Source: a virus
Virus record (IMG/VR): IMGVR_UViG_3300021363_000002
Span: 1 to 48,467 of that record
DNA length: 48,467 nt
Direction: 5' to 3' (one strand)
The notes below the pieces were generated by a model. The model made no database searches, had not been told where the DNA came from, and was given only the letters and a program-made list of their open reading frames with translations. Within the stretch, counting starts at the first letter, position 1. The number at the start of each line of letters is the position of its first letter. The position numbers and the translations under genes are program-made. Positions 3,340-48,430 of this stretch are shown in pieces.

Positions 3340-3635
3340 TGCGTTGGTTTCTTGTTCTTACACTACTCGCAACTACAACTTCTGTAGCTGCACACGATGC
3401 CCCCCTAGGATGGGCATATGATGGTGCTTGTTGCTCTGGCTATGACTGTTCACAGTCTATCGCAGGAGCTGTTTTGGAAACTAAAGGTGGCTATGTGATA
3501 AATAAGACACAAGAACTTATACCGTATGGTGACAAGCGCATCAGGCGGTCTCATGATGAGTTCTTCCATCAGTGTGTAATGAATAGCAATCCAAAGCATT
3601 CCCTCTGTTTATACGTGCCAGATAGAGGCTTCTGA
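3339..3635 (+). CDS. secreted Cys-rich protein
   Basis: Signal peptide MRWFLVLTLLATTTSVAA; WAYDGACCSGYDC motif; TAATG overlap. Confidence 0.55.
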   Translation: MRWFLVLTLLATTTSVAAHDAPLGWAYDGACCSGYDCSQSIAGAVLETKGGYVINKTQELIPYGDKRIRRSHDEFFHQCVMNSNPKHSLCLYVPDRGF

Positions 3636-4255
3636 TGAAGCAAGCATGGTTCTGCTATGTCCTGATACACGGCTATATACCTGCACCACGAATATATTAT
3701 GACATTCTACCACTCGACAAGTATATAGACCGTGTACAGTTGACAAACGTCTCTGATTTGGCAGAGAGAACTCCTAAGCACTTCACGCTTGATCTACTCG
3801 CTGCCATGTATCCTTACATACCGCCCTTGAAAGAGGAGAGTTCTGATGCTACAATTGCTACAAAGGAGAAACAAATGACCCGCCCTGTCACAGGGTTTCA
3901 GACTTCGCAAGGGAACTTCTTCGAAACTGAAGCCGAAGCGAACCTCTTTGAAGCGTCTTACGAACTACACGAAGCAACTACAACTGCTGTACATAACTTT
4001 GAACCGAGACCTGCTGATGACCAATCATTCGAGGACAGCCTTGTCGAAGGTATTAAAGCATTCATCGCAAGTCATGAAAGGATTATCCGAAAGTACCTCG
4101 ACGCCCGTGCAACTCTCACACCAAAGGGATTGTCAGATACTGTTTCGGTGGATGGACCGCCAGCCAAAGCTGATCCGTCTAATGATCCATCAGTACGAAG
4201 CAAAGATAATCCACGATTGGATGAGAAGGCCACTACCAAAGGAAAGCCTACGTGA
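3635..4255 (+). CDS. hypothetical protein
   Basis: Track ORF; TGATG overlap with the upstream gene. Confidence 0.55.
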   Translation: MKQAWFCYVLIHGYIPAPRIYYDILPLDKYIDRVQLTNVSDLAERTPKHFTLDLLAAMYPYIPPLKEESSDATIATKEKQMTRPVTGFQTSQGNFFETEAEANLFEASYELHEATTTAVHNFEPRPADDQSFEDSLVEGIKAFIASHERIIRKYLDARATLTPKGLSDTVSVDGPPAKADPSNDPSVRSKDNPRLDEKATTKGKPT

Positions 4256-4551
4256 CCTCGAACGATCAATCCGAAAAGACGGAACTTCGCCGGTTGTTGA
4301 CGGGTACGAGGCTACCCAATAATCATCACCATGTCCAACACGCCTTAGACTTCCCTGATGTAACATACAAGTTCATGCCGAATAGCAGGCGTGTCTTCGT
4401 ATATGACAACCGTGCTATCTACCATGGCCAGATGCCTCTTGGCCGTGTCATCAATGGTGAACTGTTTGTTAAAGGCAAGCCCGTCTTTAAAGGAACAATG
4501 AAACAGATATTAAGCTACTGCTGCGATCATCTGTTGGAGAAAAAGAGATGA
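4252..4551 (+). CDS. hypothetical protein (GTG start; could start later at about 4375)
   Basis: Track ORF; GTGA overlap with the upstream stop. Confidence 0.45.
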   Translation: MTSNDQSEKTELRRLLTGTRLPNNHHHVQHALDFPDVTYKFMPNSRRVFVYDNRAIYHGQMPLGRVINGELFVKGKPVFKGTMKQILSYCCDHLLEKKR

Positions 4552-4976
4552 ACCAAGTCATTTACAAGCCCCGTATATCCGTCGATTTCGACGGCGTGAT
4601 CTACAACCGCCCCAAGACTGAACGAGGCAACTTAGTTTACAGTGCTGCCCCTAATCCCGGTGCAATGAACTTCATCCGCCATGCTGTATCAGCATTTGAA
4701 GTTGTCATCTGCTCATCTCGCTTTGCTGGTTCTGATGGTGAAGCGAGTCAAGCCCTCTGTGAAGTATGGTTTGAGAAGCAACTTCGTGAGGAGCGCCGCC
4801 TTCAAGTCCTTCGTAAGAAGCCCCCATTCGATGTCAATACAGTCATGTCTAGACTAACCTTCACAGCTACAAAACCTGTAGCTAGAGTATACATTGACGA
4901 TCGTTCCTTTCTTTTCACTGGCGAGTGGCCAACTATACCTCAACTCCTAGCATTTCGTACATGGAAAGGACTATGA
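4548..4976 (+). CDS. HAD-superfamily phosphatase/nucleotidase-like protein
   Basis: HAD motif I SVDFDGVIY and a late YIDDR motif; ATGA coupling. Confidence 0.5.
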   Translation: MNQVIYKPRISVDFDGVIYNRPKTERGNLVYSAAPNPGAMNFIRHAVSAFEVVICSSRFAGSDGEASQALCEVWFEKQLREERRLQVLRKKPPFDVNTVMSRLTFTATKPVARVYIDDRSFLFTGEWPTIPQLLAFRTWKGL

Positions 4977-5197
4977 TGAAACCTACACTAAGTGATGAAT
5001 TCTGGGCGTATCTCGCTGAGAAGGCTATGAGCCATCGTCAGTTCCCAGCTGGTGATGAACAGATAAACCAAGGCAAGACAGACAACAGTCGTCACCAGAT
5101 GGAGACAGACCTGACGATGGATAAGCTGCCTCACACTGATAAGAAGCGATCCACCATCGATGAAATCCTTGCTAAAATCCTAGGAACTCGCAAATGA
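4973..5197 (+). CDS. hypothetical protein, 74 aa
   Basis: In-frame ATG at 4973 gives an ATGA overlap with the upstream stop. Confidence 0.5.
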   Translation: MMKPTLSDEFWAYLAEKAMSHRQFPAGDEQINQGKTDNSRHQMETDLTMDKLPHTDKKRSTIDEILAKILGTRK

Positions 5198-5508
5198 AGT
5201 ATGCCAATCACGGACAGTATCTCTCAAAGCTGCGACATGTACTCCTCTCTGCGGGTACACAAGGCTTGTCACAACATATGCTTAACCAATTAACTCGTAC
5301 CAAGATATTCCAGACAGACGATATGATGGAAGCTCTCAATGAATGGGAGAACCGTTATTGGGTACAGTCATTCAAGGTAAAGGGGCTCAGCAAACATCCT
5401 AAGACTATGTGGCGTGCTACTACGAAGCTGCGTGACGAATGGTCATCGTTAGTCATCGATGGTGAGCTACCGACTATTGCTGAACCCCATGAGGTGCCTG
5501 ATTTGTGA
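5194..5508 (+). CDS. hypothetical protein (last gene of the plus arm)
   Basis: Track ORF; ATGA coupling. Its 3' end overlaps the convergent gene by 35 bp. Confidence 0.55.
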   Translation: MKYANHGQYLSKLRHVLLSAGTQGLSQHMLNQLTRTKIFQTDDMMEALNEWENRYWVQSFKVKGLSKHPKTMWRATTKLRDEWSSLVIDGELPTIAEPHEVPDL

Positions 5509-8500
5509 GGTGTTTGGTAATATCAAACTTAAAGCCGGGAGGTACCTCTCTATTCTTTATTAGCTGCTCTGTTACATGGCTCTCTACACGAGCAATCAGC
5601 TTTAGTTGCTGCTTGATCATCTCAATTCTTTCTCTTTCTAGCACGGCGATTAGTTTCATAACATCGCCACGCTTGCCCATATCAAGGTTCATGCTCTTGT
5701 ACAGACGTTCAACCTTAGCAGCCTCGCCAATGCTGTTGTTTATATTACTAGCCTGCGTCTTCCATACCTTCTTGTTAGTCGCCTTCTCTACTGGACCTAG
5801 CTCCTCAATAGCCTTCTTGTACTTTGCATCTGAGCCTACAATATCTGCTTGCCAGTCACGGAAGCCTTGCTTTCTGCCTGACGTGTAGGCTCTTAAACTC
5901 TTCACCTGTTTACTGAACAGGCTATCTCTAGCCAACAGACCAGTCATACCGATCTCGTTGGTTTCCAAGAAGCTATGTATCATCGGTCCATACTTCATGA
6001 TGATAGGATTGCTAGTAGGGATAGTCACTGGATTAGGACTCATCCTATACTTGCTCATCAAGTCGGTATCTGTGACTATATTACCACCGGGGTTATCCTT
6101 CGAGGCACCCGTGTTTGGTAGAGCCGTCTCCCTGAACTGCTCCTGTTTGGCAATCTGATTGCTGTATATCTCCTCGAACTTCTTCAGCGCATCTATCTTC
6201 GTGTTCTTCAACTGTGACAGCGGAGTGAAGTTTGATACAGGTGTTGTAGTTGCCGCCTTCAGTATCGGGGTACCCTTCAAAACCTGCTGACCGAACTCCT
6301 CGAAGAATGCTTTTGGTCCACCGTCATAGAATGCAGCAGCAGTCTGTAGAGCGGTAGTACCAACGCTAGCGAAGATGGCACGGAACACCATCTCCATGTT
6401 CTGTGGAAGCAGGCCAATGTTATCCTCTGATACCGTATATACCTCGTCCTGCCAGTTCTGTGGTGACAGCAAACTATCCGGTGCCTTTATACCAGCTACA
6501 GCCGCACCCAATGTCACGATCTGAGGAAAGCCCACCATCGCAGTGTTCTCTAAGTTCTGCCCTGCGATATGCATCATTGCGGCTTTGGTATCCTCACCAC
6601 TATCACCACGTAGCATACTGTACAAGCCAGTCGTGAACGGACTATTGAACATAGTCAGTTCTAACGGCATGGGTATCTGTATACCCTGTTCCGGTGGTAG
6701 TCCCGGCATACCAAAGTACATGTTTGTACTGATGTCTCTACTGCTACGTGTCTCGAATGCATGGCGGTTATACTCCTCACCAAGCATCTCATTCCAACCA
6801 ATGCTAATAAGTCCCGGTAGCCCGACAGCAGTCCAAGCTCTAATGTTTGCACCAAGCGGGTCATCTATGAATGCCTTCCCCATCTTTCGCATGGACTGCA
6901 CCATGGGATTGAAGTATGGAGTAGCCTCACGTGTGAACTCTAATGGCCGACCAAGGACACCAGCAAGAGTAGCCATGCCTTTATTCGATGCATCGGCTTG
7001 TATCCTCTTGCCGCTAGGAGCATATACACGACCACTGCGCATTGTGTCGCCAGTCAACTCTCTGGCATTACGTGCAGCCTCAGCCGGGTCCATACCAGCC
7101 CGAGTATTCCGTATGAATGAACTGAACCTCGGCGCCTCAGAGATAGCATCGAAGACGTTACCCAACCCATGTAGCATAGCCTTGACGTTCCGACCAAGGA
7201 ACCTTGCACCGGGTATCTGTCCGCCTGAGGCATCAATAGATTTCATTACCTCTCGCATCACACCCTTGCCAGACTGGATGCTACCCTTCATGAGAGATGC
7301 GTCTGTTCCACCTTGAGTGTTAGCAAGATGATAATAACTATTCATATAGCTGTGACTCATCTGCTGAGCCAACTGATCCCTTGACTGCTGTGGCAGGAAG
7401 GGGATTGTCTTCATGTTGTTCTGAAGAGCTTCGATCATTGCTAGCTGTGTCTTGGCCCACACGGTTTTGCTAGCCGCAGCTACAACACTTGTAGGGCCAC
7501 CGGGACCAAGCACTCCCGGCTCTTTCATGACAAATCCACCAATGCTGTCTCTGATAGCCGTAGTAACAGCAAACGGGCCAGACAACAATGTAGCAGGACC
7601 AGTCATGAACTGCTCAGCACCACGCTTCACAAAGAATGTGACAGGGAACTTCGCAATGTATGGGTCGAACCGTAATAGGTTAGCTTGCAACTTAGAAGTA
7701 AGATAACTCTTCCGCTTGCCATTCTCATAGATGGTGATGACGCGATCGGGATACTTCATCATATCGTCGCCAGTTGCGGGGCGTATCGTTTCACTACCGA
7801 TCTCGCTGTTCTTCACACCCTTGACGAACGCACCACGAACGTCATGCTCTAGTTTGGACTTCAGCGTATTCCGAGTATAGTCAGTGAGCATCTCGATGGC
7901 GTTAGGTTGACCATCCATGTTCTCGGCTATATCTTCTGGCTTTTGTCTATACCAGTTATCTATAGCCTTCTGATCAGTAGGGGCAGCGGCATCCTTTATC
8001 CTCTTGATGATGCCATCAGCAGGATTAACAGTCAACGTATCGGGTGGTACAAAGTTTGTCCCGTGTGTATTCTGATGCAGCAGGCTCTGCTGCGATATCA
8101 TAGCATTGTCACCAGTGGCAAGGAAGTTTCTCGTCGCCGCAGTGATATGCTTATATGCAGCGGAGAACTCCTTAACTACAGGAGTCCTCTGTTCTATCAT
8201 ATAGATGTTCTGATTAACCTGTCTCAACTTAGCTGGAGCATCAGGTGCTGGCTTACCCCTTGGACGCCGACTAGCAAGTATCCTTTGCTGTAGCAGATCA
8301 GCATAGTTCTTGTGCTTGAGATACATATCTACGTCAGCTTGCATAGCTGGTGGTAAACGAGCATTCTCTTGGAACAGTTGATTAGGCGTGATATCAACCT
8401 TCCAGACACCAGCCTTAGTAGCTAGTTGACCAGTTCTCATGCTCTCGTTGACACGCATCAAGGCAGTCATCTGACTATCCTGATCGATCATCTTCGCTAC

Positions 8501-9634
8501 GCTATCAAAGTCACCCGTCCCTGCTCGTTTATATAAGTCCTGCAATACCTGTTTCTCATCAACGAAGTAGGTCTTCGTTAGATCGCTGGCTCGTTCCAAC
8601 GTCTTCAGGCCGGGAGGGCCATACATGTCTATATCAGTGATGTTAACTGCTGGCCTGTCTCTATAGGCACCACTCATTCTTATTGCCTTAGACACGGCAG
8701 GCACAACAATACCAGCACCAGCTAGAGCAGCCATACCCATACCGACCCACTTGGCCGCTTCAGGGAATGCCTTATCCTCCTTTGGATTAGTCAGCCCTGC
8801 CTGATCAAACACAGTCTTATACTGCGTATCCGCTGTATCTGTTATCTCTCTTAGTACTTGATCAGCTACAGCAGCTGTAGCGAAGTTGGCAAGTATCCTC
8901 TTCGGACCACTACCTATCACCAATGGTGTGACTATCTCAGCAAGGTTCTTGATAACCCCTGTTGGATTGGTCGTACCGGGTATAGGAGTTACGCTGGCAA
9001 CAAGACCTGCAAGGCTTTCCGTGACGTTCCTCGGGTCGCTGATGCCGACCGCTTGGCGTACCCCTTGTCGTATATGCTCTGCAGCGAGGAGTGTTGCATC
9101 TGCGCCAAGATTAGCGCCTGTTGCCAATTCTCCGCCTTTAGCCAGTAATCCAGCAAGGCCGATTGGACCGCTAGTGGGAAGCTCTGCCGCACCGCCAACG
9201 ACATTTCCGGCGTCACGGAGCAGGTCTTTAGAAGCATCTCCGAGACTGAGCATTCCACCCTGATCAATCCTCTTGCGACTTGCGACTTCCTCCGGTGCTC
9301 CCGGATTGACCGTGTTTGCGCTAGGGTTTTCGATAATGGCTGCAAGGTCCTCATCGCTGAAACTCTCCATTCTGTTGGGAGTGAGTATGCGATCGCCTCG
9401 GTTAGCTTCATCGATTAGTTGTTGCTTCTCGTTTGCGTTCTCAATAGTCGGCTGTTGTGATGTGTCAGCTACAGGTGTTGTAGCTACAGGTTTCTTGATG
9501 ATATCAGTAGTTGCTGCTCTCGCTGGCGTAGTACCAATGATAGACTGCATGATTTCAGCCTGCCGACGTTCCCGTTCAGCAGGGTCTTTGATAGTAGCGA
9601 GTTCAGCCAGTAAGGCTCTAATATCTTTTACCAT
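5474..9634 (-). CDS. large internal virion / DNA-ejection protein (gp16-like by size and position)
   Basis: 1386 aa, last gene of the late operon, following a run of Gly/Asn/Gln-rich virion-type proteins. Confidence 0.4.
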   Translation of the reverse strand: MVKDIRALLAELATIKDPAERERRQAEIMQSIIGTTPARAATTDIIKKPVATTPVADTSQQPTIENANEKQQLIDEANRGDRILTPNRMESFSDEDLAAIIENPSANTVNPGAPEEVASRKRIDQGGMLSLGDASKDLLRDAGNVVGGAAELPTSGPIGLAGLLAKGGELATGANLGADATLLAAEHIRQGVRQAVGISDPRNVTESLAGLVASVTPIPGTTNPTGVIKNLAEIVTPLVIGSGPKRILANFATAAVADQVLREITDTADTQYKTVFDQAGLTNPKEDKAFPEAAKWVGMGMAALAGAGIVVPAVSKAIRMSGAYRDRPAVNITDIDMYGPPGLKTLERASDLTKTYFVDEKQVLQDLYKRAGTGDFDSVAKMIDQDSQMTALMRVNESMRTGQLATKAGVWKVDITPNQLFQENARLPPAMQADVDMYLKHKNYADLLQQRILASRRPRGKPAPDAPAKLRQVNQNIYMIEQRTPVVKEFSAAYKHITAATRNFLATGDNAMISQQSLLHQNTHGTNFVPPDTLTVNPADGIIKRIKDAAAPTDQKAIDNWYRQKPEDIAENMDGQPNAIEMLTDYTRNTLKSKLEHDVRGAFVKGVKNSEIGSETIRPATGDDMMKYPDRVITIYENGKRKSYLTSKLQANLLRFDPYIAKFPVTFFVKRGAEQFMTGPATLLSGPFAVTTAIRDSIGGFVMKEPGVLGPGGPTSVVAAASKTVWAKTQLAMIEALQNNMKTIPFLPQQSRDQLAQQMSHSYMNSYYHLANTQGGTDASLMKGSIQSGKGVMREVMKSIDASGGQIPGARFLGRNVKAMLHGLGNVFDAISEAPRFSSFIRNTRAGMDPAEAARNARELTGDTMRSGRVYAPSGKRIQADASNKGMATLAGVLGRPLEFTREATPYFNPMVQSMRKMGKAFIDDPLGANIRAWTAVGLPGLISIGWNEMLGEEYNRHAFETRSSRDISTNMYFGMPGLPPEQGIQIPMPLELTMFNSPFTTGLYSMLRGDSGEDTKAAMMHIAGQNLENTAMVGFPQIVTLGAAVAGIKAPDSLLSPQNWQDEVYTVSEDNIGLLPQNMEMVFRAIFASVGTTALQTAAAFYDGGPKAFFEEFGQQVLKGTPILKAATTTPVSNFTPLSQLKNTKIDALKKFEEIYSNQIAKQEQFRETALPNTGASKDNPGGNIVTDTDLMSKYRMSPNPVTIPTSNPIIMKYGPMIHSFLETNEIGMTGLLARDSLFSKQVKSLRAYTSGRKQGFRDWQADIVGSDAKYKKAIEELGPVEKATNKKVWKTQASNINNSIGEAAKVERLYKSMNLDMGKRGDVMKLIAVLERERIEMIKQQLKLIARVESHVTEQLIKNREVPPGFKFDITKHLTNQAPHGVQQ

Positions 9635-10623
9635 AGGCCGTTAGTTGGGTTCTTGATCAGCTTAGGTGCTTTCGGGAAGGTGTACTGATTAATCTCATCA
9701 GTCTTATCACCCCCACCAAAGTCAAGCCTACCTAATATAGATGCCAGTCCATTGGTATCCATACCAGAATTACCAACGCCTTGCGCTAGTTGTGCTGCGG
9801 CATTCTGATTACTGCCAATGCTACGCTGCATGGCCTGCACAAGCTGTTGCAGTGCTGCATCGCTTCTGCCAGTTAATGCTTGGTTCATCTGGCCACCGGG
9901 ATTGCCTACAGGTGTTGTAGCTGTATCGTCAGCGATACCTTGAAGCAGCTTCAACTCACCACCCATGTTGCTGAGGTCGTTGGCATTCCGCTCTCTATTT
10001 CGAGCACTACCAAGTCGCTTGCCTTCAAGCATGGCGTCTTGCAAAGTCTTGGCATAGTTGTCATCGGCTGACTTATACATGCCTGCCAACTCACTGCTAC
10101 CACCTGTACGTATAAGCTGTCGTGCCAACAAGGAGCTAGCCTCATCCATGCCTTTGCGTCTAGCCGACAACAGTGTATTCGTAGTGTCTGAGATGTCTTC
10201 ACTTTCACTGACCTTAGGCCGGAAGCGGAACTCGTTAAACTTCTTCTGGAACTCCTCTGCACCCATCTTACTACGAGTGTCTAGACGTTCAGCAGCAGCC
10301 CTATTCCTAGGTGCATCCTCACGTAAATTCCTCAACTCTTCATTCTGCTGACTGCCGAGTATAGCCTCAGTCATAGGTGTGGTGTCTATCTCCCACCCTA
10401 CACCGGGAGTGTACTTCAGCAGATTGCCATAAGCATCCCTTCGGCTGCTCTTGGCCATATTCTCTGTTGCCCTGTTTGCTCGTTTAGTCTCAAACAGGCT
10501 GGCCCAATTGATGTTATTGGCGTCCTGCTTAGCCTTGTTATCTGAGAACATGCCAAGAGCAGAGACACCAGCACCAATAAGGGGAGCAATTGGAAACATA
10601 TTAGTACCCGCCTTGTCCGCCAC
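9628..10623 (-). CDS. putative internal virion protein (GTG 10623, or ATG 10599)
   Basis: Track ORF; position inside the internal-protein block. Confidence 0.4.
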   Translation of the reverse strand: MADKAGTNMFPIAPLIGAGVSALGMFSDNKAKQDANNINWASLFETKRANRATENMAKSSRRDAYGNLLKYTPGVGWEIDTTPMTEAILGSQQNEELRNLREDAPRNRAAAERLDTRSKMGAEEFQKKFNEFRFRPKVSESEDISDTTNTLLSARRKGMDEASSLLARQLIRTGGSSELAGMYKSADDNYAKTLQDAMLEGKRLGSARNRERNANDLSNMGGELKLLQGIADDTATTPVGNPGGQMNQALTGRSDAALQQLVQAMQRSIGSNQNAAAQLAQGVGNSGMDTNGLASILGRLDFGGGDKTDEINQYTFPKAPKLIKNPTNGLW

Positions 10624-10963
10624 CCATCATCTTTTGCAATATCATCTGCTTCGGGTCAGGCTGTTGGCCTCGTTGGGCAAGCTGCTCAACTTCCATCAGT
10701 TCAGCATCCGTAGCTGGTTCGCGACCGTTCTGGATCATCCACTCAGCTTTGGCTCTGATATAATCAGGATGGCCTGTTATATCTGGTCCCATAATGCCGC
10801 CATCTTCCCCAACGCCAACCTCTGCATCTGGTGCAATCTCACCACCTTCTTCTGGATTGCGTGGTTGTACTGCTGGACCTGTAGGCCCTTTAGCTGGATT
10901 GCCCCCACCAGCCTGCATTGATTGTTGTATGAGTTGGTTAATGTCTATTGGTCCTTGCATCAC
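10601..10963 (-). CDS. hypothetical virion-associated protein, Gly/Pro-rich
   Basis: Track ORF; ATGA overlap with the upstream gene. Confidence 0.4.
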   Translation of the reverse strand: MMQGPIDINQLIQQSMQAGGGNPAKGPTGPAVQPRNPEEGGEIAPDAEVGVGEDGGIMGPDITGHPDYIRAKAEWMIQNGREPATDAELMEVEQLAQRGQQPDPKQMILQKMMGGGQGGY

Positions 10964-11625
10964 TGATCTCCTAACATCTCTTTAAGTATTTGTGCCTTGA
11001 TATCATCTTGTGGCACCAACTCAGGATCACGATTTGTAGCTACAGGTGTTGTAGCTGCCCTCACTTCGTTGAGTATATCTATCGGAGCCCGTTTCATGTC
11101 TTGTGCAGCACTTGTCCAGAAGCTACTTTTCTGATTAGGCTTCAGGGTAGCATATGCGTTTTCATCCATGCCACCTTTAATACCAAGTATCTCTGCGGCT
11201 TGAGTATATGGCATCTTGAGAAATGTATCTCTACCAATCTGGTTTATCGTCTCTTCGGCTAGCTTTGGATAGGCTTGTGCATCAGGAAAGTCTTTTCTCT
11301 TTTCCTTCTTGACGACGTTCTCATTATAGAGATTTCTGTATCTTGAACTAGGCCCTTCTTCTGGATGGGTGCCAACACCACTATCTAATTGATCCCGCAA
11401 TGTCTCAGACTTATACCGCCCACCACGAGGGTTGATTGGTCCACCAGCTTCACGGCCTCGTTTCATTACAGTCTTCTTCATCATGCTGCGAGGCTGAGCA
11501 GGATCACCACTCTTCAATGTTCGTGTACTAGCCACCATCATCTTGTCCTTGCCAAGTATCTGGTCAAGGATAAAATCCGGTATCGTCCTCGACATAGGTC
11601 GGGACTTTTTATAAATATCACTCAT
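10960..11625 (-). CDS. hypothetical virion-associated protein
   Basis: Track ORF; TAATG overlap with the upstream gene. Confidence 0.4.
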   Translation of the reverse strand: MSDIYKKSRPMSRTIPDFILDQILGKDKMMVASTRTLKSGDPAQPRSMMKKTVMKRGREAGGPINPRGGRYKSETLRDQLDSGVGTHPEEGPSSRYRNLYNENVVKKEKRKDFPDAQAYPKLAEETINQIGRDTFLKMPYTQAAEILGIKGGMDENAYATLKPNQKSSFWTSAAQDMKRAPIDILNEVRAATTPVATNRDPELVPQDDIKAQILKEMLGDQ

Positions 11626-33541: not shown

Positions 33542-33549
33542 TATTCTGA

Positions 33550-40481: not shown

Positions 40482-40557
40482 TGGAAAGTAGCTCAGTTGG
40501 TAGAGCAGCGGTCTCCAAAACCGCAGGTCGTAGGTTCAAGCCCTGCCTTTCCAGCCA
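40482..40557 (+). tRNA. tRNA-Trp: tRNA-Trp (anticodon CCA), CCA end encoded
   Basis: Cloverleaf folded by hand. Acceptor TGGAAAG/CTTTCCA. D arm GCTC-AGTTGGTA-GAGC. Anticodon arm GCGGT-CTCCAAA-ACCGC. Variable loop AGGTC. T arm GTAGG-TTCAAGC-CCTGC. Discriminator G, then CCA. Confidence 0.85.
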
Positions 40558-40790: not shown

Positions 40791-41284
40791 TGGGATTGTA
40801 CGATCCGTATTATCCTTATCATCCCTATGGAAGGAAGAAAATTCTAGTCCTTCAACACAAAGTAACCGGCGACTTCATGTCGTTCAGTTTAGGAGATGTA
40901 GCCATGCCCAAGCCCAATAAACAACAAATCCGTGATGCAGTTGAAGAGCAACGTGATACCAACCCTCATCTTGGTTTGGAATTTCATATCCATACCGTCA
41001 TGGATATGTATGATATCTCTGGCCTCGATGTCGCGATGGCATTCATTGATGAAGCTGAAGAGAAGGAGCCAGCCGAAGTTAAAACTGGTGACTCTACTTC
41101 AACTACAGCAGCTGTAGCTGATGATGAAGCCGAGAAGCGTCGCAAGGACGTTGAAGAGAACAATGATGGCGTGGTCGAACAAAAGAAGATTGACCACGAT
41201 ATCGATGAGAAGTTTGCAGCTACTAAAGCTGCGATGACTAAATCTACCGTCTCATCTAAGGTTGCTACGAACAAGAAGAGATGA
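40787..41284 (+). CDS. hypothetical acidic protein
   Basis: Track ORF; ATGA overlap. Confidence 0.5.
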   Translation: MMGLYDPYYPYHPYGRKKILVLQHKVTGDFMSFSLGDVAMPKPNKQQIRDAVEEQRDTNPHLGLEFHIHTVMDMYDISGLDVAMAFIDEAEEKEPAEVKTGDSTSTTAAVADDEAEKRRKDVEENNDGVVEQKKIDHDIDEKFAATKAAMTKSTVSSKVATNKKR

Positions 41285-41481: not shown

Positions 41482-41582
41482 AGATAGCTAAGTTTAAATA
41501 TCGTGGTAAGATTTATACAAGTCTTACTGAACTCGCTGCAGCAATGCTTGCTCATACATTGGAGAAGTCCAATGTTAAATGA
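41475..41582 (+). CDS. hypothetical micro-protein, 35 aa (MLKIAKFKYRGKIYTSLTELAAAMLAHTLEKSNVK), HTH-like
   Basis: Hand-translated; GGAGG 10 nt upstream. Confidence 0.35.
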   Translation: MLKIAKFKYRGKIYTSLTELAAAMLAHTLEKSNVK

Positions 41583-41955
41583 TCTCATCGCCTTACGTAA
41601 CAAGAAGACGCCTAAGAATATCTCGAACACTGACGCCCTGATGTTCGACTACAAGTTCTGGACAGAAGCCGAAAGTGTCATCAAGAAGACACGAGAAGCA
41701 TCTAAGTCTACAATGCTCTCTGCTTCTGATAAGCCTGACAAGCCCGGCATTGTCCTCGCCTCACAGAAATACAAATGCGTCCTCGAACAGTCCTCTCCTA
41801 TTCGTGCGTTCGATTTGGAAGTCTTCATCATGAGTGTCCTTGATTACTACCCACTTTGCTCCAAGCCGAAGCTGCGTGAACTGGCTACAGCTGCTGTAGT
41901 TCCCACCAAGCCACGTAACACATACAAGGTAATGGAGATTACAGATGTCGAGTAG
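41572..41955 (+). CDS. hypothetical protein, 127 aa
   Basis: ATG 41572 after GGAGAAG; in frame with the track ORF starting at 41503. Confidence 0.5.
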   Translation: MLNDLIALRNKKTPKNISNTDALMFDYKFWTEAESVIKKTREASKSTMLSASDKPDKPGIVLASQKYKCVLEQSSPIRAFDLEVFIMSVLDYYPLCSKPKLRELATAAVVPTKPRNTYKVMEITDVE

Positions 41956-42579: not shown

Positions 42580-42722
42580 TGGATAAGTTCACTTGGTTTG
42601 TCATGGCGTTGACTATCTGTATCAACGCTTACAATACACGCTGCAACTGGTTGCTCTATGATCAACTTCGTCGTGAAGATGATCAACGTGCCAAGATGCG
42701 TAAGGAGCATCCTGATGTCTGA
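42576..42722 (+). CDS. small membrane protein, 48 aa (MMDKFTWFVMALTICINAYNTRC...)
   Basis: Hand-translated; GAGGAGG RBS; ATGA overlap. Confidence 0.4.
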   Translation: MMDKFTWFVMALTICINAYNTRCNWLLYDQLRREDDQRAKMRKEHPDV

Positions 42723-42936
42723 AGACAGTGATGAGTTCCAACGTATTGTAATCGCTCGCGAGTTAGTGCGTCGCCCTGAAATCAAATTCTTGGCCGGTGT
42801 ACTCTACAATCTGACTACAGGTGTTGTAGACAAAAACGAAATCCCGCCGATCTACATCACCATCGCGTACAAACTAATCACACAGAAACACGCAAGGGAA
42901 TTACTCCTTGCAGCGATAGGAGCAGCCACACCATGA
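42715..42936 (+). CDS. hypothetical protein, 73 aa
   Basis: In-frame ATG 42715 overlapping the upstream stop. Confidence 0.45.
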   Translation: MSEDSDEFQRIVIARELVRRPEIKFLAGVLYNLTTGVVDKNEIPPIYITIAYKLITQKHARELLLAAIGAATP

Positions 42937-43217: not shown

Positions 43218-43422
43218 ACAAACTGTCCTTATCGACAGTAGTGAAGTAGCAGCCCACATTCCTGACTACGATGATAACATCCGCTGTCCGGATCATCCTA
43301 CAGCGAAAGTTGTCTCATCATTTGGTCTTGCTGGTGGTGGCTACGGTCCATACACATACTGCGACATATGTTGCAGGATACTATCTAAGACAAGTGAACC
43401 TATGGAAGACAGTTCTACATGA
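43198..43422 (+). CDS. zinc-ribbon-like protein, 74 aa
   Basis: ATG 43198 after GGAGAAG; CPDH...CDICC pattern. Confidence 0.45.
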   Translation: MTKNPTEQTVLIDSSEVAAHIPDYDDNIRCPDHPTAKVVSSFGLAGGGYGPYTYCDICCRILSKTSEPMEDSST

Positions 43423-44492
43423 AATTCCGTCTAGCCGATATCAAGTTTGATGACCAAGGTCGTCGCATAGACGAAGACTTCCGTCTTCCATACTATAGTT
43501 TCTCAATCATGGAGGCAATTCTCACCTGTCCTAAGTGGGGATTGATAAGATATCGTGACAGAAAGTACTTCAAATCTAACTATCGAGCGCTCGCACTCGA
43601 AGCTGGCTCGGCGATGCATGAAGTATTTGGAGCCTTACGTCTTTGGCAACTCAAACGAGTTCAAGGCTTGCCAGATCACTTTAACCATCACGGAACTAGA
43701 CTGTACGGTAAGAACCGTTTGGACACTTGCTGGTGGGACAAGAGTGATCCACGAGACGAAGCACTCTCCTTTTGTTTTGAAATTCTAAACTCTGGTGAGT
43801 ACTACGACGATCCAAAGGACCGCATCCGGACGATGGCCCATATGGAAGAAACGACTATTCGGTATGTAGACGAGATGATGAAGGTTATGGATCGTAACTC
43901 TATCTGGATTGCTGACCCCAAAGACCCTACAGCACCTGTAGGTATAGAGTACACATTTGATATGGTGGTAGATAATGCGATCCGATACATCGGAACTATT
44001 GATGGTATCACTATCCATACTCCTCGCGGCGTTACCAGAAACGAGGAGAACAAGACCGCTAGCCGTCTTGATGAGGCATGGCGTGAAAGTTACAGAGTTA
44101 AGTTCCAGCCTACTGGATACACAATCGCGTCTCGTCTACTTACAGGCGAAGAGATCATCGAGAACAAAATCATAGGCATCAAGGTAAAACAGACAAGAAG
44201 TAGTGAAGACTTCCTAATGTTTGTGGAGCACAGAGATGTCGATACGTGGTCAGACTTTTATAACACACTTCTTTATACGCATAAGCTTGCTCTTGAGTAT
44301 GCTGGTAATAACCTCAATGCTCCTATGTTTACTCACTCTTGTAATCGATACTTCCGACCATGTGGGTTCATTGACTTATGCTGCGCATCACAAGACGATC
44401 AGCAAACTATGTATGATGCAATGGAGAGAACTCAATTGTCACCTAGTGAGAGAGCAATACTAGGTACACAGGAGGATGATGATGTTACATAA
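43419..44492 (+). CDS. PD-(D/E)XK exonuclease, Cas4/RecB-like, with Fe-S Cys cluster
   Basis: N-terminal Cys (ILTCPKWG); GTIDGITIH; E-x-K (EENK); QPTGY; C-terminal CNRYFRPCGFIDLCC. Confidence 0.65.
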   Translation: MKFRLADIKFDDQGRRIDEDFRLPYYSFSIMEAILTCPKWGLIRYRDRKYFKSNYRALALEAGSAMHEVFGALRLWQLKRVQGLPDHFNHHGTRLYGKNRLDTCWWDKSDPRDEALSFCFEILNSGEYYDDPKDRIRTMAHMEETTIRYVDEMMKVMDRNSIWIADPKDPTAPVGIEYTFDMVVDNAIRYIGTIDGITIHTPRGVTRNEENKTASRLDEAWRESYRVKFQPTGYTIASRLLTGEEIIENKIIGIKVKQTRSSEDFLMFVEHRDVDTWSDFYNTLLYTHKLALEYAGNNLNAPMFTHSCNRYFRPCGFIDLCCASQDDQQTMYDAMERTQLSPSERAILGTQEDDDVT

Positions 44493-44667
44493 GACACACC
44501 GCTACACACATACAGTTAAGTTTGATCAAGACAAAATAGATCGTCTTGCTCACATTGAGGAAATCTATCAAAACACGAATGGTTGGACAAAGCAGCTATT
44601 CAATCTCTATGAAGAACGCAAGCAGTTGCAAATGCTCTGCAAGCGTATGAGGCCAGAAAAGTCATGA
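44476..44667 (+). CDS. hypothetical protein
   Basis: Track ORF; CAGGAGG RBS. Confidence 0.45.
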   Translation: MMMLHKTHRYTHTVKFDQDKIDRLAHIEEIYQNTNGWTKQLFNLYEERKQLQMLCKRMRPEKS

Positions 44668-45470
44668 CTGAAATCGTCATCGAACAACCGGATGAAGTAA
44701 TCAGCCGATCGACTGGCCTCCTTTGGGGAATGCCCGGTTGTGGGAAGACAACTTTTCTCTCTTCCCTGCCACCACCTATCCTCTATGTCATGATAGACCC
44801 TGATGGTAAGGACTCCATTCCCTCTGACACGGATTACACGCTTCTTGACCTGTCCATGCAAGATGACGATGTAACAGTCCGCTATTGTAAAGACAAACTG
44901 CCTACCCTAATCAAACGCCTCGATTGGACTACAGGTTCTGTAGCGTTCGATAGCTTAACCATCTTCTCGAACCGTGCTCTCAATTATGCTGTGCAGCAGA
45001 AAGTTGGTGCTGGTAAGAAGGGCTTCGAACCAACCATCGAAGAACCCGGCCAAACCGCCTATGGTGCCCGTCGTCAATACATCACTCATACTGTCAGCAA
45101 TGTCCTTCGTGCGACTGCACAGAAGGGTTACAACTGTTGGTTCACTACCCATCAAGGTGATGCAGAGATGGACGAGAAGGGCAACATCATTCGTTACACA
45201 ATGATGCTCGGTGGCAAGGCTACCAACGATGCTGCTATACAAATATCCGAATGCTGGTGGATGCGTGAGTATGATGGCAAACGTTCCATCGCTGTTCGCA
45301 ATTGCCGCAATAGAGAACCGATGAAGACGCGTATGTTTGATGCGTCTAAGTCGCCAGAGTTCGAACTCAAGTTCAATCCATCGCTTGGGTTCGATCAGCC
45401 ACATAGCATTGCAACGTGGCACAAACAGTGGTTAGATGGAGGAAGAAAGAAAATGCCACTGCCTACGTAG
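44664..45470 (+). CDS. RecA-fold ATPase, Sak4/AAA_24-like (recombination)
   Basis: Walker A GMPGCGKTT; size and position directly upstream of a DUF669-like gene. Confidence 0.6.
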   Translation: MTEIVIEQPDEVISRSTGLLWGMPGCGKTTFLSSLPPPILYVMIDPDGKDSIPSDTDYTLLDLSMQDDDVTVRYCKDKLPTLIKRLDWTTGSVAFDSLTIFSNRALNYAVQQKVGAGKKGFEPTIEEPGQTAYGARRQYITHTVSNVLRATAQKGYNCWFTTHQGDAEMDEKGNIIRYTMMLGGKATNDAAIQISECWWMREYDGKRSIAVRNCRNREPMKTRMFDASKSPEFELKFNPSLGFDQPHSIATWHKQWLDGGRKKMPLPT

Positions 45471-45496
45471 GAAGTAGTAACAAATAGGAGAATACT

Positions 45497-46000
45497 ATGG
45501 CAAAGAATGCAATTAAAGCAGACTTGGAACAGACAGAACTGGAAGAGAACCGAAAGCTCTCTGCTGGCGCTGGTAAGGAACGATCCGGTATCCTCGAACT
45601 CGATATGAACCTTGAGGATTACGAAGACTTCGAACCACTGCCTGACGCCTTCTATCCCGGCACAGTTACACTCGCTGAGATGCGTACGTCTGCAAAGGGT
45701 AACGATTATTATTACGTTACCTTCCAAGTGCATCCTGATGACTTTCCTCCGGATTACTCTATCGACAACGCTCCGGAAGGTATCAACCTTGTCTACGCTC
45801 GTGTCCAGAAGCCGACGCCTAGAAACCGTCGTTCTATCACTGGCGTCAAGAACTTCCTTCGTGCCCTTGGCATGTCGCTGAAGTCATCTGTCATCAACCC
45901 CGGTGAGTGGGAAGGCCATCGTGCTAACCTTCTCCTCGGCCACCAAGACTGGAATGGCATCGATATCAATACCATCGATGGCATCGAGGCTTTGGACTAA
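45497..46000 (+). CDS. DUF669-like protein (putative ssDNA-binding partner of Sak4)
   Basis: Hallmark FEPLPDAFYPGTVTLAEMRTSAKGNDYYYVTFQV; synteny with the AAA_24-like gene. Confidence 0.6.
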   Translation: MAKNAIKADLEQTELEENRKLSAGAGKERSGILELDMNLEDYEDFEPLPDAFYPGTVTLAEMRTSAKGNDYYYVTFQVHPDDFPPDYSIDNAPEGINLVYARVQKPTPRNRRSITGVKNFLRALGMSLKSSVINPGEWEGHRANLLLGHQDWNGIDINTIDGIEALD

Positions 46001-46015
46001 CTACAACACCTGTAG
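46001..46015. repeat. motif copy abutting a stop codon and fused to a terminator stem
   Basis: TAA-CTACAACACCTGTAGC-TGGTG... Confidence 0.9.
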
Positions 46016-46045
46016 CTGGTGGCGCAAATGTCACCAGCTACTTTT
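46013..46045 (+). terminator. weak intrinsic terminator / hairpin sharing bases with a motif copy
   Basis: 9-bp stem TAGCTGGTG/CACCAGCTA followed by CTTTT. Confidence 0.45.
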
Positions 46046-46056
46046 AGGAGGATCAC

Positions 46057-47217
46057 TTGAACTACTCTGAAGAACAACATGAAGCTATCGACTTAGGCAC
46101 CGATAAGTCCAAACGCCTAGTCGGTATTACCGGTCCGGCCGGTACAGGCAAAACAACTATAATCGGGGAGATGATCCACAGTGGTGAGTTCAACATGCCT
46201 GCTCTCGTGGCCCCCACTGGAAGGGCTGCCAAGAGAATACAAGAAGCGACTGGTATCCCTGCTAAGACAATCCACCGCTTCATGCGCTATTCGATGCCAG
46301 CCGATGACGAAGAGGCAGGCTTCCCCTCCTATGATAAACAAAACCGATTTCCACATGACGCGATCTTCGTTGACGAGTCCTCTATGGTATCTGAAGAACT
46401 GTATCGTGCCCTTGTAGATGCTATGCCGCCTCGTGCATGTATCCGCTTCATTGGTGATGCCAATCAGCTACCGCCTGTTGAAAGCATCAGTCCTTTCGTC
46501 AAACTATTAGAGAAGTGGCCATCTATTCGCCTTACCAAGAACTTCCGAAGTGGAGATGGCATTGTCACAGCAGCTAATCAGATCATCGCTAATCGCGTAC
46601 CTGAGCCGAACGAGAAGTTCCGTATGCTTAATCCGGGCAACGGGAACATCTTACCTGCGCTTGATGAGTTCGTCGACGACACATTTCGTGGTCTCAACGG
46701 ACAAGTCATCACCCCAACAAGAGTGGGCAAATACGGAACGCAACAGCTCAATAATTACTTCCAGCAACGACTCAACCCCTCTGGCCCCCGTATAGCTATC
46801 CGTGTCAACGATGAGGAGATACGCAAGTTCCGTGAGGGTGACAAGATCATCCAAACGAAGAATGACTACAAACTGAATGTCTTCAATGGTGAGATAGGTT
46901 GGGTAGTCGCAATCGAAGATGATGATATAATCATCAGTATTGATGATCGTGACATTCGCCTCCCACCACACATGGAAAGCTATGATCCATACACCAACAA
47001 GACTATCGGTCACTATGACCCCCGCCGTAACCTCGACCTTGCCTATGCTGTTACGACACATAAGGCTCAGGGGAGTGAATTTGATCGTGTTGTCATCCTC
47101 ATTCAACGAAGCTACGTGCTCAACCGCGCAAACTTTTACACGGCTGTCACCAGAGCCAAGGAGCAATGCACAGTAATCTGTGGACCGGGAGCGCTGCATC
47201 AGGCATTAAAGAAATGA
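46057..47217 (+). CDS. SF1 RecD-like DNA helicase
   Basis: Walker A GPAGTGKTT; Walker B IFVDESSMV; C-terminal AVTTHKAQGSEFDRVVI; TTG start after TAGGAGG. Confidence 0.8.
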   Translation: MNYSEEQHEAIDLGTDKSKRLVGITGPAGTGKTTIIGEMIHSGEFNMPALVAPTGRAAKRIQEATGIPAKTIHRFMRYSMPADDEEAGFPSYDKQNRFPHDAIFVDESSMVSEELYRALVDAMPPRACIRFIGDANQLPPVESISPFVKLLEKWPSIRLTKNFRSGDGIVTAANQIIANRVPEPNEKFRMLNPGNGNILPALDEFVDDTFRGLNGQVITPTRVGKYGTQQLNNYFQQRLNPSGPRIAIRVNDEEIRKFREGDKIIQTKNDYKLNVFNGEIGWVVAIEDDDIIISIDDRDIRLPPHMESYDPYTNKTIGHYDPRRNLDLAYAVTTHKAQGSEFDRVVILIQRSYVLNRANFYTAVTRAKEQCTVICGPGALHQALKK

Positions 47218-47561
47218 GTAGAGAAATGATATACCTTGCTTCACCTTACTCTCACCCCGATCGTAACCTTGTCAATGAACGTGTTGGCATTACTCGTCAG
47301 TGTTGTGCTGCACTTATCAATAAGAAGTTCTGTGTCTGGTCGCCGATATTGATGACTCACGGTATTGCCTATGGCTTACCAACCGATGCTAAGTTCTGGA
47401 TGGAGTATAACTTCGATTTCATCCGTCGGTGTGAGTATATCTTTGTCCTCAAAATCCCCGGATGGGATACAAGTGTTGGAGTTGCAGAAGAAATCGCTGT
47501 AGCTAAATCACTGTTCATCCCTGTTCGCTTCGTTGACGCTTTTGGAGATTTCATAGAATGA
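47214..47561 (+). CDS. DUF1937 / nucleoside 2-deoxyribosyltransferase-like protein, 115 aa
   Basis: IYLASPYSHPD N-terminal signature; ATGA overlap with the helicase stop. Confidence 0.5.
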   Translation: MSREMIYLASPYSHPDRNLVNERVGITRQCCAALINKKFCVWSPILMTHGIAYGLPTDAKFWMEYNFDFIRRCEYIFVLKIPGWDTSVGVAEEIAVAKSLFIPVRFVDAFGDFIE

Positions 47562-47767
47562 GAGCGCATCCTGTTAGAGACGTACAAATCATCTTCACTG
47601 TCGAACTCTCCGATAAGAAGTTCTACAGTCAAGTATCTATCCCTCTTGAGTCATCAGATGAGGATAAACATGAAGCTGTTACTAACTGGCTACAGATGAT
47701 GGAGATGGGTTTGAAGTGGAACCTATCTGAAATGAGGGCCACCTTCAAGGAGAAGGATGATGGCTGA
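47558..47767 (+). CDS. hypothetical protein
   Basis: Track ORF; ATGA overlap. Confidence 0.5.
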   Translation: MRAHPVRDVQIIFTVELSDKKFYSQVSIPLESSDEDKHEAVTNWLQMMEMGLKWNLSEMRATFKEKDDG

Positions 47768-47954
47768 CTTCTGTAAGAAGTGCTCAATAAAGACTTTTGG
47801 TAAAGACTATGGTGACTTTGCTAATATCGTGTCACCAGAGGAAGAGGCTAGGGGTCTTGTAGTAACTGTCCTATGTGAAGGCTGTGGCCCAATTGATGTC
47901 AATCACAGGGGCGAATGTGTCTCACCTGATTGTGAGGAGTGCAAACGTGCTTGA
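47757..47954 (+). CDS. Cys-rich zinc-binding-like protein
   Basis: CKKC...CEGC...CVSPDCEEC pattern. Confidence 0.5.
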   Translation: MMADFCKKCSIKTFGKDYGDFANIVSPEEEARGLVVTVLCEGCGPIDVNHRGECVSPDCEECKRA

Positions 47955-48138
47955 CGGTTTATATCGTGTCCGCACACCGTATCTATGTGCAGGGTTTGTA
48001 GTCAAGAATGGTCGTGTTGTCTACTGTGCACCAGTACTTCGCAATCGTCTCCCATACTGGAAGACAGTCGCTCAACGAATGGATAAGAATGATGACCCGT
48101 ATACGTATCTTGCAGCTAGCAAAGAAACTAATCACTGA
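47947..48138 (+). CDS. hypothetical protein, 63 aa (GTG start)
   Basis: GTG 47947 lies 9 nt after GAGGAG. The track ATG at 47875 would overlap the previous gene by 80 nt. Confidence 0.4.
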   Translation: MLDGLYRVRTPYLCAGFVVKNGRVVYCAPVLRNRLPYWKTVAQRMDKNDDPYTYLAASKETNH

Positions 48139-48430
48139 ACACTACCTGCCTTTGAGCCACCACCGTCTAGCTACAACTGCTGTAGGTGAAAACGTTGCCT
48201 ACTGCCACCCCGATGCAGTCAACTTCTCACTAGTTGGTGCAATTGAACGTGCCATCTATAATAGTACGGGTGATGACTACAATCTCCGCGGTGATTTATA
48301 CGAAGCTTCAATCGGTCCTCTTATCACCCGCCTTGGTGGTCGGGGTCCAACCCGAGTATTCCTAGAAATAGCACCTGAGAAAGCTATTCATCATCTACTC
48401 GATGAACAACTGAAGGAGTGGCTACAATGA
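48089..48430 (+). CDS. hypothetical protein (DUF6197-like?), 113 aa; wraps into 1..90
   Basis: In-frame ATG 48089. The family resemblance (..HPDAVNFSLVGAIERA..) is from memory only. Confidence 0.4.
   Translation: MMTRIRILQLAKKLITEHYLPLSHHRLATTAVGENVAYCHPDAVNFSLVGAIERAIYNSTGDDYNLRGDLYEASIGPLITRLGGRGPTRVFLEIAPEKAIHHLLDEQLKEWLQ

Follow-up and report, generated by a model that had tools for sequence, protein, structure and literature searches.

The 48,467-nt stretch of virus DNA analyzed here (IMG/VR record IMGVR_UViG_3300021363_000002, positions 1-48,467; hereafter, the window) carries, within and between its genes, 41 perfect copies of a 15-bp palindrome, CTACA-N5-TGTAG. The main new result of the analysis is that hundreds of uncultured relatives of this virus carry different odd-length palindromes, with the palindrome type following phylogeny. 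The ends of the window are identical over 127 bp (1-127 and 48341-48467), so that the sequence represents a circularly assembled complete genome with a unique length of 48,340 bp. The genes form two convergent blocks: early and replication genes occupy the plus strand from ~33.8 kb through the window end to 5.5 kb, and structural and lysis genes occupy the minus strand between 33.0 and 5.5 kb. The replication module (227-2707 and 43419-47217) encodes a family A DNA polymerase, a RecD/Dda-like helicase, a PD-(D/E)xK exonuclease, and an AAA_24 (Sak4-like) ATPase, with a gene for a 167-aa protein occupying the SSB position; among the window proteins scanned, none was recognized as a primase.

The late and early blocks diverge around a 0.8-kb non-coding stretch (33000-33815) that has a strong terminator-like hairpin at 33507-33534 as well as C-runs and G-runs (~33270-33330 and ~33660-33690); it may serve as an origin or a packaging site or mark the genome ends. 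The early block contains two sigma70-type promoters, a perfect TTGACA-17-TATAAT at 39915-39943(+) and a near-consensus TTGTAA-17-TATAAT at 34273-34301(+), which suggests that the early genes are transcribed by the host RNA polymerase. Neither an integrase nor a repressor was detected among the window proteins, and a search of 185,579 species genomes (one per bacterial or archaeal species) yielded no prophage relative, only one mis-binned phage contig; the clade therefore appears to be strictly lytic. There are no close cultured relatives (the best matches show ~25% identity to the DNA polymerase or the capsid protein), and we found no description of the CTACA-N5-TGTAG motif or of the phage clade in the literature.

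A palindrome about once per kilobase

In 100 dinucleotide-preserving shuffles, CTACA-N5-TGTAG occurred 0.04 times on average and at most once; the 41 perfect copies in the window (3373 to 48185), about 1 per kb, represent a ~1000-fold enrichment. A further 13 copies carry one mismatch, compared to 1.7 expected, with the change mostly at the outermost C or G. Three gene calls were corrected in the assignment of copies to genes: 18654-19328(-) is a conserved gene that holds the copy at 18902; the first late gene, called at 32672, begins at ATG 32862 with AGGAG ahead, so that the copy at 32889 lies in a 5' untranslated region (UTR) and is not coding; and homologs of the 405-aa open reading frame (ORF) begin near 37690. 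With these corrections, 29 copies are located in protein-coding sequences (CDSs), one (37628) in a small ORF, and 11 in non-coding DNA. The copies are listed below with the strand of the gene and the peptide read; relatives that keep or lack a copy are given by locus number.

Perfect copies
3373-3387, CDS 3339-3635(+), read ATTTSVA
4867-4881, CDS 4548-4976(+), read TATKPVA; the L007 homolog has AIKPIA without the motif
7480-7494, 1386-aa gene 5474-9634(-), read PTSVVA
8866-8880, 1386-aa gene 5474-9634(-), read ATAAVA; kept in relative L006
9469-9483, 1386-aa gene 5474-9634(-), read ATTPVA
9906-9920, CDS 9628-10623(-), read ATTPVG
11040-11054, CDS 10960-11625(-), read ATTPVA
12685-12699, CDS 12539-12985(-), read ATALVA; kept in L007
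14243-14257, CDS 14001-14285(-), read ATALVA within a lipoprotein signal peptide (LVAGC)
14653-14667, CDS 14282-14848(-), read TTGPVA
16172-16186, tail-fiber-like CDS 15168-16886(-), read TTAYVD
17371-17385, CDS 16883-18754(-), read ATAYVV; kept in L002
18902-18916, conserved CDS 18654-19328(-), read ATSVVA
21469-21483, CDS 21365-22453(-), read ATGVVA
22189-22203, CDS 21365-22453(-), read ATAPVV
23516-23530, portal-position CDS 22395-24398(-), read TTEVVA
26048-26062, lineage-unique CDS 25902-27410(-), read ATAVVA
26852-26866, CDS 25902-27410(-), read ATQAVA; center GCCTG
28314-28328, CDS 27706-28491(-), read TTTTVV
29804-29818, CDS 28485-30002(-), read ATSVVA
30214-30228, CDS 30002-30340(-), read ATEDVV
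31134-31148, CDS 30739-31212(-), read ATALVA
32313-32327, non-coding, exactly between the stop of 32328-32672(-) and the next start codon
32889-32903, 5'UTR of the first late gene (ATG 32862, -), downstream of an AT-rich promoter-like stretch
33043-33057, non-coding, between the divergent blocks
33550-33564, non-coding, 15 nt past the terminator-like hairpin 33507-33534
33868-33882, CDS 33816-34118(+), read TTTPVV
34193-34207, intergenic
34331-34345, 5'UTR, 30 nt downstream of the -10 element of TTGTAA-17-TATAAT (34273-34301); center GGAGT, a Shine-Dalgarno sequence
35575-35589, intergenic, ahead of the start codon at 35592; center GGAGT
36282-36296, intergenic; palindrome reaches 25 nt
37628-37642, small ORF ending at 37646, read Y-S-T-C, the sole Y..C case; upstream of the conserved start of the 405-aa ORF
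38843-38857, intergenic, past a terminator-like hairpin
40005-40019, 5'UTR, ~60 nt downstream of the consensus TTGACA-17-TATAAT (39915-39943)
41103-41117, CDS 40787-41284(+), read TTAAVA
41885-41899, CDS 41503-41955(+), read ATAAVV; kept in L006
42815-42829, CDS 42658-42936(+), read TTGVVD
43927-43941, exonuclease-like CDS 43419-44492(+), read PTAPVG; kept in L006 and L007, absent from other-motif lineages
44929-44943, AAA_24/Sak4-like CDS 44664-45470(+), read TTGSVA
46001-46015, intergenic, between the SSB-position gene and the RecD-like helicase gene
48171-48185, CDS 48008-48430(+), read ATTAVG

One-mismatch copies
1016-1030 (TGTAT), DNA polymerase gene, which has 0 perfect copies
3978-3992
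6235-6249, in the 2.6-kb gap from 4867 to 7480
13616-13630
19678-19692, in the gap from 18902 to 21469
19828-19842, in the same gap
21151-21165, major capsid gene, which has 0 perfect copies
24326-24340, in the gap from 23516 to 26048
25305-25319, large terminase gene, which has 0 perfect copies
30474-30488
34113-34127
35238-35252
47690-47704 (TGGAG), possibly a chance match

The perfect copies are spaced more evenly than by chance (coefficient of variation 0.60 vs 0.97 for random placement; P = 2e-4), and the one-mismatch copies tend to lie far from the perfect ones (646 vs 401 bp; P = 0.008), filling the gaps. Large gaps coincide with the most conserved genes, those for the DNA polymerase, the major capsid protein, and the large terminase (TerL), which are the genes without perfect copies. 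Sites are found in every module, including the lineage-unique cassette at 25.9-31.6 kb, and their density is highest in early and non-coding DNA. Twelve of the 41 copies fall within the 6% of the genome that is non-coding, and 7 lie within 2 kb around the divergent early/late junction; several are located 30-60 nt downstream of sigma70-like promoters or directly after terminator-like hairpins, and the center of three copies provides the GGAG of a Shine-Dalgarno sequence.

Selection on the nucleotide sequence

The preliminary description of this genome, made without database searches, proposed that the constraint acts on the nucleic acid, with the proteins accommodating it, and codon usage, peptide counts, and homologous proteins all support this view. 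Neither of the two codons imposed by the motif is dominant in the window genes (ACA accounts for 34% of the Thr codons and GTA for 25% of the Val codons), and 45 of the 107 T-x-x-V peptides are written ACA...GTA, compared to ~9 expected. Altogether, T-x-x-V occurs 108 times vs ~80 for T-V pairs at other spacings, a surplus that approximates the number of motif copies, so that favored codon or peptide usage is ruled out as the cause. In alignments of homologs, the motif peptide lies mostly in ungapped sequence, and lineages with other motifs show other residues at the same positions; for example, the exonuclease-like protein contains DPTAPVG in the window and DPNCLVG, DPEKPIG, DPKSFLG, or DPHAAVG in other-motif lineages. 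The sites thus arose by in-place substitution, which changed protein residues; insertion of 15-bp cassettes is ruled out because the sites align without 5-residue gaps. About one third of the aligned sites are common to same-motif relatives, and the remainder have turned over. The pattern is thus genuine and striking, and the core claim, that nucleotide-level selection overrides protein sequence, holds. The term dual coding, which was applied to this pattern, is too strong: the genes tolerate a palindrome of the size of a binding site, in a manner comparable to uptake sequences.

The frame xCT-ACA-NNN-NNT-GTA-Gxx (Thr-x-x-Val) is the one used, on both strands, by 29 of 30 intragenic copies; after the gene-call corrections, this reproduces the count reported previously, along with the sole exception, 37628, where Y-S-T-C ends the small ORF. 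One of the other two frames contains TAG and the other one demands Tyr-x-x-Cys. The TAG frame, already pointed out as a stop, is used 0 times, both here and among 164 copies from 8 genomes or loci with the same motif type, and the equivalent stop frame is unused in every lineage. The use of a single frame had also been presented as evidence of selection, and this argument fails. TAG closes one frame, and codon frequencies outside the motif predict T..V over Y..C at 15:1 (32:1 when the constrained center is counted), so that 29 of 30 matches the composition-based expectation (binomial p = 0.44) and the frame bias is ruled out as an independent signal. Lineages with GTGTGA-N-TCACAC, where the motif costs about the same in each open frame, accordingly use both (CVTHT or LCDSH, 24 vs 25). 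The single frame is the one in which the motif is cheapest, which is ordinary and a warning against treating the use of one frame only as a separate signal; the main interest of the system is the lineage-specific diversification of the motif across a large uncultured phage clade.

The arms of the palindrome are strict, as originally described; the center, which was considered variable, is not free. The five central bases are constrained to R-S-W-S-Y (in symmetrized counts, purine (R) first, G or C (S) second, A or T (W) in the center; Y, pyrimidine), and this pattern is also obeyed by the 11 clearly non-coding copies, the sole copy that departs from it being 26852. Together with the flanks, the site is a fully degenerate palindrome, R-CTACA-R-S-W-S-Y-TGTAG-Y, with half-site centers 10 bp apart and a weak sense-strand bias at the central base. 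Half-site independence was assessed in the 164 sites from the 8 genomes or loci that share the CTACA-N5-TGTAG type. The two halves were complementary in the flanks in 48 cases (52.5 expected), at N1/N5 in 68 (81 expected), and at N2/N4 in 32 (46.5 expected); there is, in these sites, no hairpin covariation, that is, the degenerate positions pair no more than independent half-sites would. The preliminary description left open whether the constraint acts on DNA or on RNA. Because the half-sites vary independently and without pairing covariation, the evidence leans to duplex DNA.

Lineage-specific palindromes in uncultured relatives

Relatives were retrieved from IMG/VR with profiles for TerL (394) and the DNA polymerase (241), 80 loci were kept from each, and motifs were identified by an unbiased census of gapped palindromes. 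Nearly every lineage was found to possess its own over-represented odd-length palindrome, at 0.2-1.5 copies per kb. These palindromes form two layout families. The 5-N5-5 family includes CTACA-N5-TGTAG, (C)TACAG-N3-CTGTA(G), TTACAA-N3-TTGTAA, TTACAT-N3-ATGTAA, and TTAAA-N5-TTTAA; the 6-N1-6/7-N1-7 family includes GTGTGA-N-TCACAC, GTTTGA-N-TCAAAC, GTATGA-N-TCATAC, CTTTAA-N-TTAAAG, GATAAA-N-TTTATC, and TGATTAA-N-TTAATCA. When at least 10 motif variants are placed on the trees of TerL and of the DNA polymerase, the motif type follows phylogeny and neighboring types are one base apart (TTACA, TTAAA, and CTACA; GTGTGA, GTTTGA, and GTATGA). Genomes that share one and the same motif range from 41% to 54% in G+C, which argues against a host-dictated sequence. 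The motif co-evolves with something heritable in the phage.

Some sub-lineages are nearly devoid of sites (for example, L061 and L063), and the distant polymerase relatives L015-L020, including the complete genome MW202489, contain no motif sites. Conversely, relatives can have an early region still more crowded than that of the window: in L024, it holds 11 sites in 1.8 kb, largely non-coding; positions 4000-5000 of this locus resemble the non-coding stretch 33000-33815 of the window and carry ~9 motif copies 100-150 bp apart. Outlying lineages (L080, L086-L088, L092, L094, L143, L148, and L154) have lower-density, even-length palindromes, namely, aTCTACA-N2-TGTAGAt, GTCAACACGTGTTGAC, and TTATACGTATAA, so that the phenomenon may predate the odd-length motifs.

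Among described systems, the closest is the 17-bp palindrome TGTTCGG-N3-CCGAACA of the Cluster O mycobacteriophages (Corndog and relatives), which is present in 34 invariant copies, in and between genes, and is absent from the host; the authors proposed that these are sites for a dimeric protein, with an unknown function (PMC4351075). Both motifs have invariant inverted arms, a short biased spacer, and very few one-off variants, and both exceed 30 copies per genome, inside and between genes, with a bias in Cluster O to the short intergenic regions of one gene block and a non-coding excess in the window (12 of 41 copies in 6% of the genome, with 29 or 30 intragenic). However, the Cluster O phages are unrelated siphoviruses of Mycobacterium, and their motif is different; nothing points to common descent, as similarity of the window proteins to cultured phages does not exceed ~25% identity. 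Their copies are mostly intergenic or near the 5' ends of genes, whereas those in the window are 71% intragenic. Moreover, Cluster O has one motif in five near-identical genomes, with neither lineage diversification nor frame accommodation described; the window has about twice the density, and at least 10 variants are spread among hundreds of relatives.

Cluster A mycobacteriophages carry tens of strict 13-bp sites, the stoperators, at which one phage protein, a gp71-type repressor, blocks transcription, and the stoperator sequence differs by sub-lineage and co-evolves with the repressor. The term stoperator appears in PMC4351075 and PMC3029335. Similarly to the window motif, stoperators are present in tens of copies genome-wide, with a sub-lineage-specific sequence. 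In contrast to the palindromic window sites, most of which are intragenic, stoperators are asymmetric, oriented to transcription, and found mainly in short intergenic regions, and they serve prophage immunity in temperate phages, whereas there is no sign of lysogeny in the clade of the window.

The uptake signal sequences (USS) of Pasteurellaceae, the DNA uptake sequences (DUS) of Neisseriaceae, and Chi are cellular asymmetric motifs that are read on one strand by the uptake or recombination machinery. These motifs resemble the one described here in their density (~1 copy per kb) and lineage-specific dialects, as well as in the location of many copies in genes, in the cheapest frames and the less conserved protein parts, through in-place substitution. 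The window motif differs from them in that it is its own reverse complement, is viral, and has no such machinery recognized. Stoperators, uptake sequences, and Chi are therefore best regarded as functional analogies, each of which fails at least one defining feature here. The GTAG-tagged repetitive extragenic palindromes (REPs), short palindromic repeats carrying GTAG/CTAC (PMC3733652), share only this tetranucleotide with the window motif: REPs are 20-40 bp long, imperfect, extragenic, cellular, and RAYT-linked, whereas the window element is 15 bp long, perfect, and mostly intragenic. Finally, a host restriction site would be expected to be avoided in a phage genome, in contrast to the ~1000-fold enrichment seen here.

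Possible readers and functions of the sites

The explanation that we favor, with a probability of roughly one half, is that the copies are genome-wide duplex-DNA sites for a homodimeric, probably phage-encoded protein and act as a stoperator-like operator or roadblock array. This function is favored because of the promoter-proximal and early-region bias of the sites and because of the Cluster A precedent. Also in favor of the explanation as a whole are the enrichment and strictness of the motif, its palindromic anatomy, its co-evolution with the phage lineages, the even coverage, the presence in the clade of DNA-binding proteins (RHH in 6-N1-6 lineages, a predicted winged helix in the window; see below), and the Cluster O precedent. 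We infer that a protein dimer reads the site and that the phage encodes this dimer; what its binding does can be proposed along the following lines. CTACA-RSWSY-TGTAG would be a high-affinity duplex-DNA site for a sequence-specific homodimer, the subunits of which would recognize the half-sites, (R)CTACA(R), independently of each other; the centers of the half-sites are one helical turn apart. The reader most likely would be encoded by the phage and co-evolve with its own sites, and selection would maintain ~1 site per kb across the whole chromosome. In coding DNA, the site would take the cheapest frame (Thr-x-x-Val), making the peptide a by-product. Through such an array, one regulator could act on every transcription unit of its own genome, with the control presumably peaking in the early region and in 5'UTRs close to promoters, and the lineage-specific sites might insulate each phage from the regulators of its relatives.

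Several considerations weigh against an operator array. Roadblocks are awkward, in that the sites throughout the highly expressed late operon are poorly explained. Lysogenic immunity, the setting of the known stoperators, does not apply, given the lack of an integrase and of prophage relatives. The strict arms would also suit a nickase or a modification enzyme, and a modest hairpin is possible in RNA or single-stranded DNA. No protein examined as a candidate qualified as the reader of the window motif, and most of the early proteins, among the window proteins scanned, belong to no detectable family. Furthermore, the correlations between motif type and gene families are all confounded by shared ancestry. 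Two genes of the window were considered in particular:

5194-5508 (+), putative DNA-binding protein, 104-aa winged helix, clade-wide
33816-34118 (+), weak reader candidate, 100-aa protein by the dense site cluster, found in 5-N5-5 lineages only

The first of these is the last gene of the early/middle block and is present throughout the clade, including motif-poor lineages. The AlphaFold model (pLDDT 73) has an H-H-H-beta-beta topology and structural matches to PadR, MarR, and TFE-like proteins at TM 0.5-0.6, and thus supports a predicted winged-helix fold; the RPC34 winged-helix domain is also among the best matches. Helix 3 is acidic, and the conserved (basic) residues are identical across motif classes, that is, they do not track the motif type, another point against this protein as the reader. 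The 33816-34118 family is confined to 5-N5-5 lineages, the TTAAA variant among them, and is missing, also to its disadvantage, from the complete genome L024+L113, which carries the motif; its model is of low confidence, with two helices. The small terminase (31555-32175) is a bona fide TerS (PDB 7joq, 6w7t), and its helix-turn-helix does not track the motif type, which likewise counts against it; TerS was rejected as the reader because this region hardly differs between GTGTGA and GTATGA lineages and also occurs in motif-poor ones. Also rejected was the ~300-aa early protein (37690-38799 family), which is found in motif-rich and motif-poor lineages alike, and the comparison of gene families between motif-rich and motif-poor loci was itself set aside as confounded by phylogeny.

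Every 6-N1-6 lineage encodes a ribbon-helix-helix (RHH) protein (TacA1, NikA, or CopG-like) between the genes at the SSB position and for the RecD-like helicase (L012 7651-7926, L151 1150-1377, L124 8072-8311, and ~35 other loci). RHH dimers bind short palindromes of the 6-N1-6 size, which makes this protein a natural candidate for the reader in these lineages. Among six proteins tested against Pfam, one scored above the cut-off, four were marginal, and one had no match. The beta-strand differs by sub-lineage, with FRC/S in GTGTGA, YRVS in GTATGA, and VRIR in GTTTGA lineages. Weaker RHH homologs are also present in motif-poor lineages, and the association with the 6-N1-6 motif amounts to a single phylogenetic event; the RHH family is absent from the window and so does not provide a reader there.

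A possible but less likely explanation is that the sites are nucleation or recognition points marking the chromosome as self and that transcription is not the target: a phage protein would compact or coat the phage's own DNA, protect it, or process it in preference to that of the host or competitors. The spacing that is more even than chance, with degenerate copies in the gaps, would be expected of such coverage, as would the presence of sites in every module, even in the lineage-unique cassette, the fast diversification of site sequences between lineages, the apparent lytic lifestyle, and the densest arrays in a non-coding stretch that could enter or be handled first. However, no effector was recognized among the proteins scanned (no nuclease of such specificity and no ParB-like or SMC-like gene), and nearly all copies are lost in some sub-lineages (L061 and L063). 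The tags known to us (Chi, DUS, USS, and the FtsK-orienting polar sequences, KOPS) are asymmetric and read on one strand, which is a further point against this explanation. A broader version, likewise possible but less likely, is that the palindromes of this large clade of uncultured lytic podophages, written into genes of every module about once per kb, would be a fast-diversifying, lineage-specific "genomic barcode". A co-evolving phage protein would read it to tell the phage's own DNA from that of the host or of competing relatives, for protection or exclusion or so that its own DNA is replicated or packaged preferentially. Viruses would then have an equivalent of uptake sequences or Chi, with two interchangeable reader architectures (RHH for 6-N1-6 and another one for 5-N5-5).

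We consider it unlikely that the palindrome is the recognition site of a restriction-like dimeric enzyme with which the phage acts on its own DNA, either a site-specific nickase or a base-modifying enzyme. The very strict arms (41 perfect copies vs 13 one-off copies, changed mostly at an outer base) and the single-base steps in specificity, as in restriction-modification systems, would fit such an enzyme, and nick-primed synthesis is conceivable as no primase was recognized. The genomes of T5, phiKMV, and tf carry localized nicks; the nick consensus sequences known to us, however, are asymmetric and confined to one strand. Among the proteins scanned, there is no methyltransferase, HNH, GIY-YIG, or other site-specific nuclease, the sole nuclease being the exonuclease-type PD-(D/E)xK protein that is also found in motif-free relatives, and cutting both strands of the palindromes would break the genome.

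Slightly less probable still is selection for a stem-loop, either in replicating single-stranded DNA or in mRNA, where it could influence transcript stability or processing or allow an RNA-binding protein to control translation. An inverted repeat is identical in the transcripts of either strand, several copies lie in 5'UTRs, and in three, GGAG is in the loop just ahead of a start codon. Predicted hairpins are modest and unequal, from -2.5 to -10.6 kcal/mol as DNA and from -4.3 to -14.8 kcal/mol as RNA; thus, RNA stems of -4 to -15 kcal/mol are available, but their stability differs about threefold among copies, and a stem of 5 bp, two of them G-C, is weak. Compensated changes of the arms do not occur, the flanking and inner degenerate positions pair no more than at chance level, and, in the 6-N1-6 relatives, the innermost bases, which are unable to pair in a hairpin, are invariant and the most conserved. 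As for intrinsic terminators, no T-run follows the copies and the stems have two G-C pairs, and an Rfam search of the window matched tRNA-Trp alone, with nothing at the motif copies. The anatomy of the site fits two identical protein subunits on duplex DNA better than a selected stem-loop.

A REP-like or miniature inverted-repeat transposable element, possibly GTAG-tagged and RAYT-driven, that inserted in frame, or else a peptide or codon artefact, is largely refuted and very improbable: the GTAG/CTAC ends recall the GTAG-tagged REPs (PMC3733652), 15 bp is divisible by three, and a few sites coincide with indels in homologs, but most sites align ungapped, the indels seen span 3, 4, or 6 residues and not 5, no transposase was found among the window proteins, the codon and peptide controls leave the excess unexplained, and the non-coding copies have the same arms and the same constrained center.

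No established function accounts for a tag of this kind in a lytic virus, spread evenly over the whole genome and private to each lineage. Strong selection at the DNA level can overwrite protein sequence, here imposing Thr and Val on nucleases and on portal, tail, and lysis proteins. If a co-evolving phage protein reads the sites, the clade is a natural experiment in which the recognition code drifts and ~40 sites per genome must follow. The Cluster O precedent, the only close one, has been unexplained since 2015, and the variety of motifs in this clade provides many independent test cases. The motif also offers a clean marker by which metagenomic contigs can be assigned to these lineages.

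The interval between the TerS and TerL genes (25902-31571(-) in the window) is a hot spot for lineage-specific large genes, which in relatives (L001 5225-10002, L022 7530-9779, L024 6149-8587, L048 1934-7573, and L055 6928-9183) are tail-fiber or tailspike cassettes with a Peptidase_S74 chaperone and beta-helix. The large genes in this interval seemed to be tied to motif-rich lineages and were considered as motif-linked enzymes, but proved to be such cassettes. The unique 5.6-kb cassette of the window (25.9-31.6 kb) contains motif copies at normal density. Among the other genes of the window, 47166-47561(+) encodes a DUF1937/nucleoside 2-deoxyribosyltransferase-like protein that is not common to relatives, and a tRNA-Trp gene (anticodon CCA), the sole Rfam or ARAGORN match, is located in the early block at 40482-40557(+).

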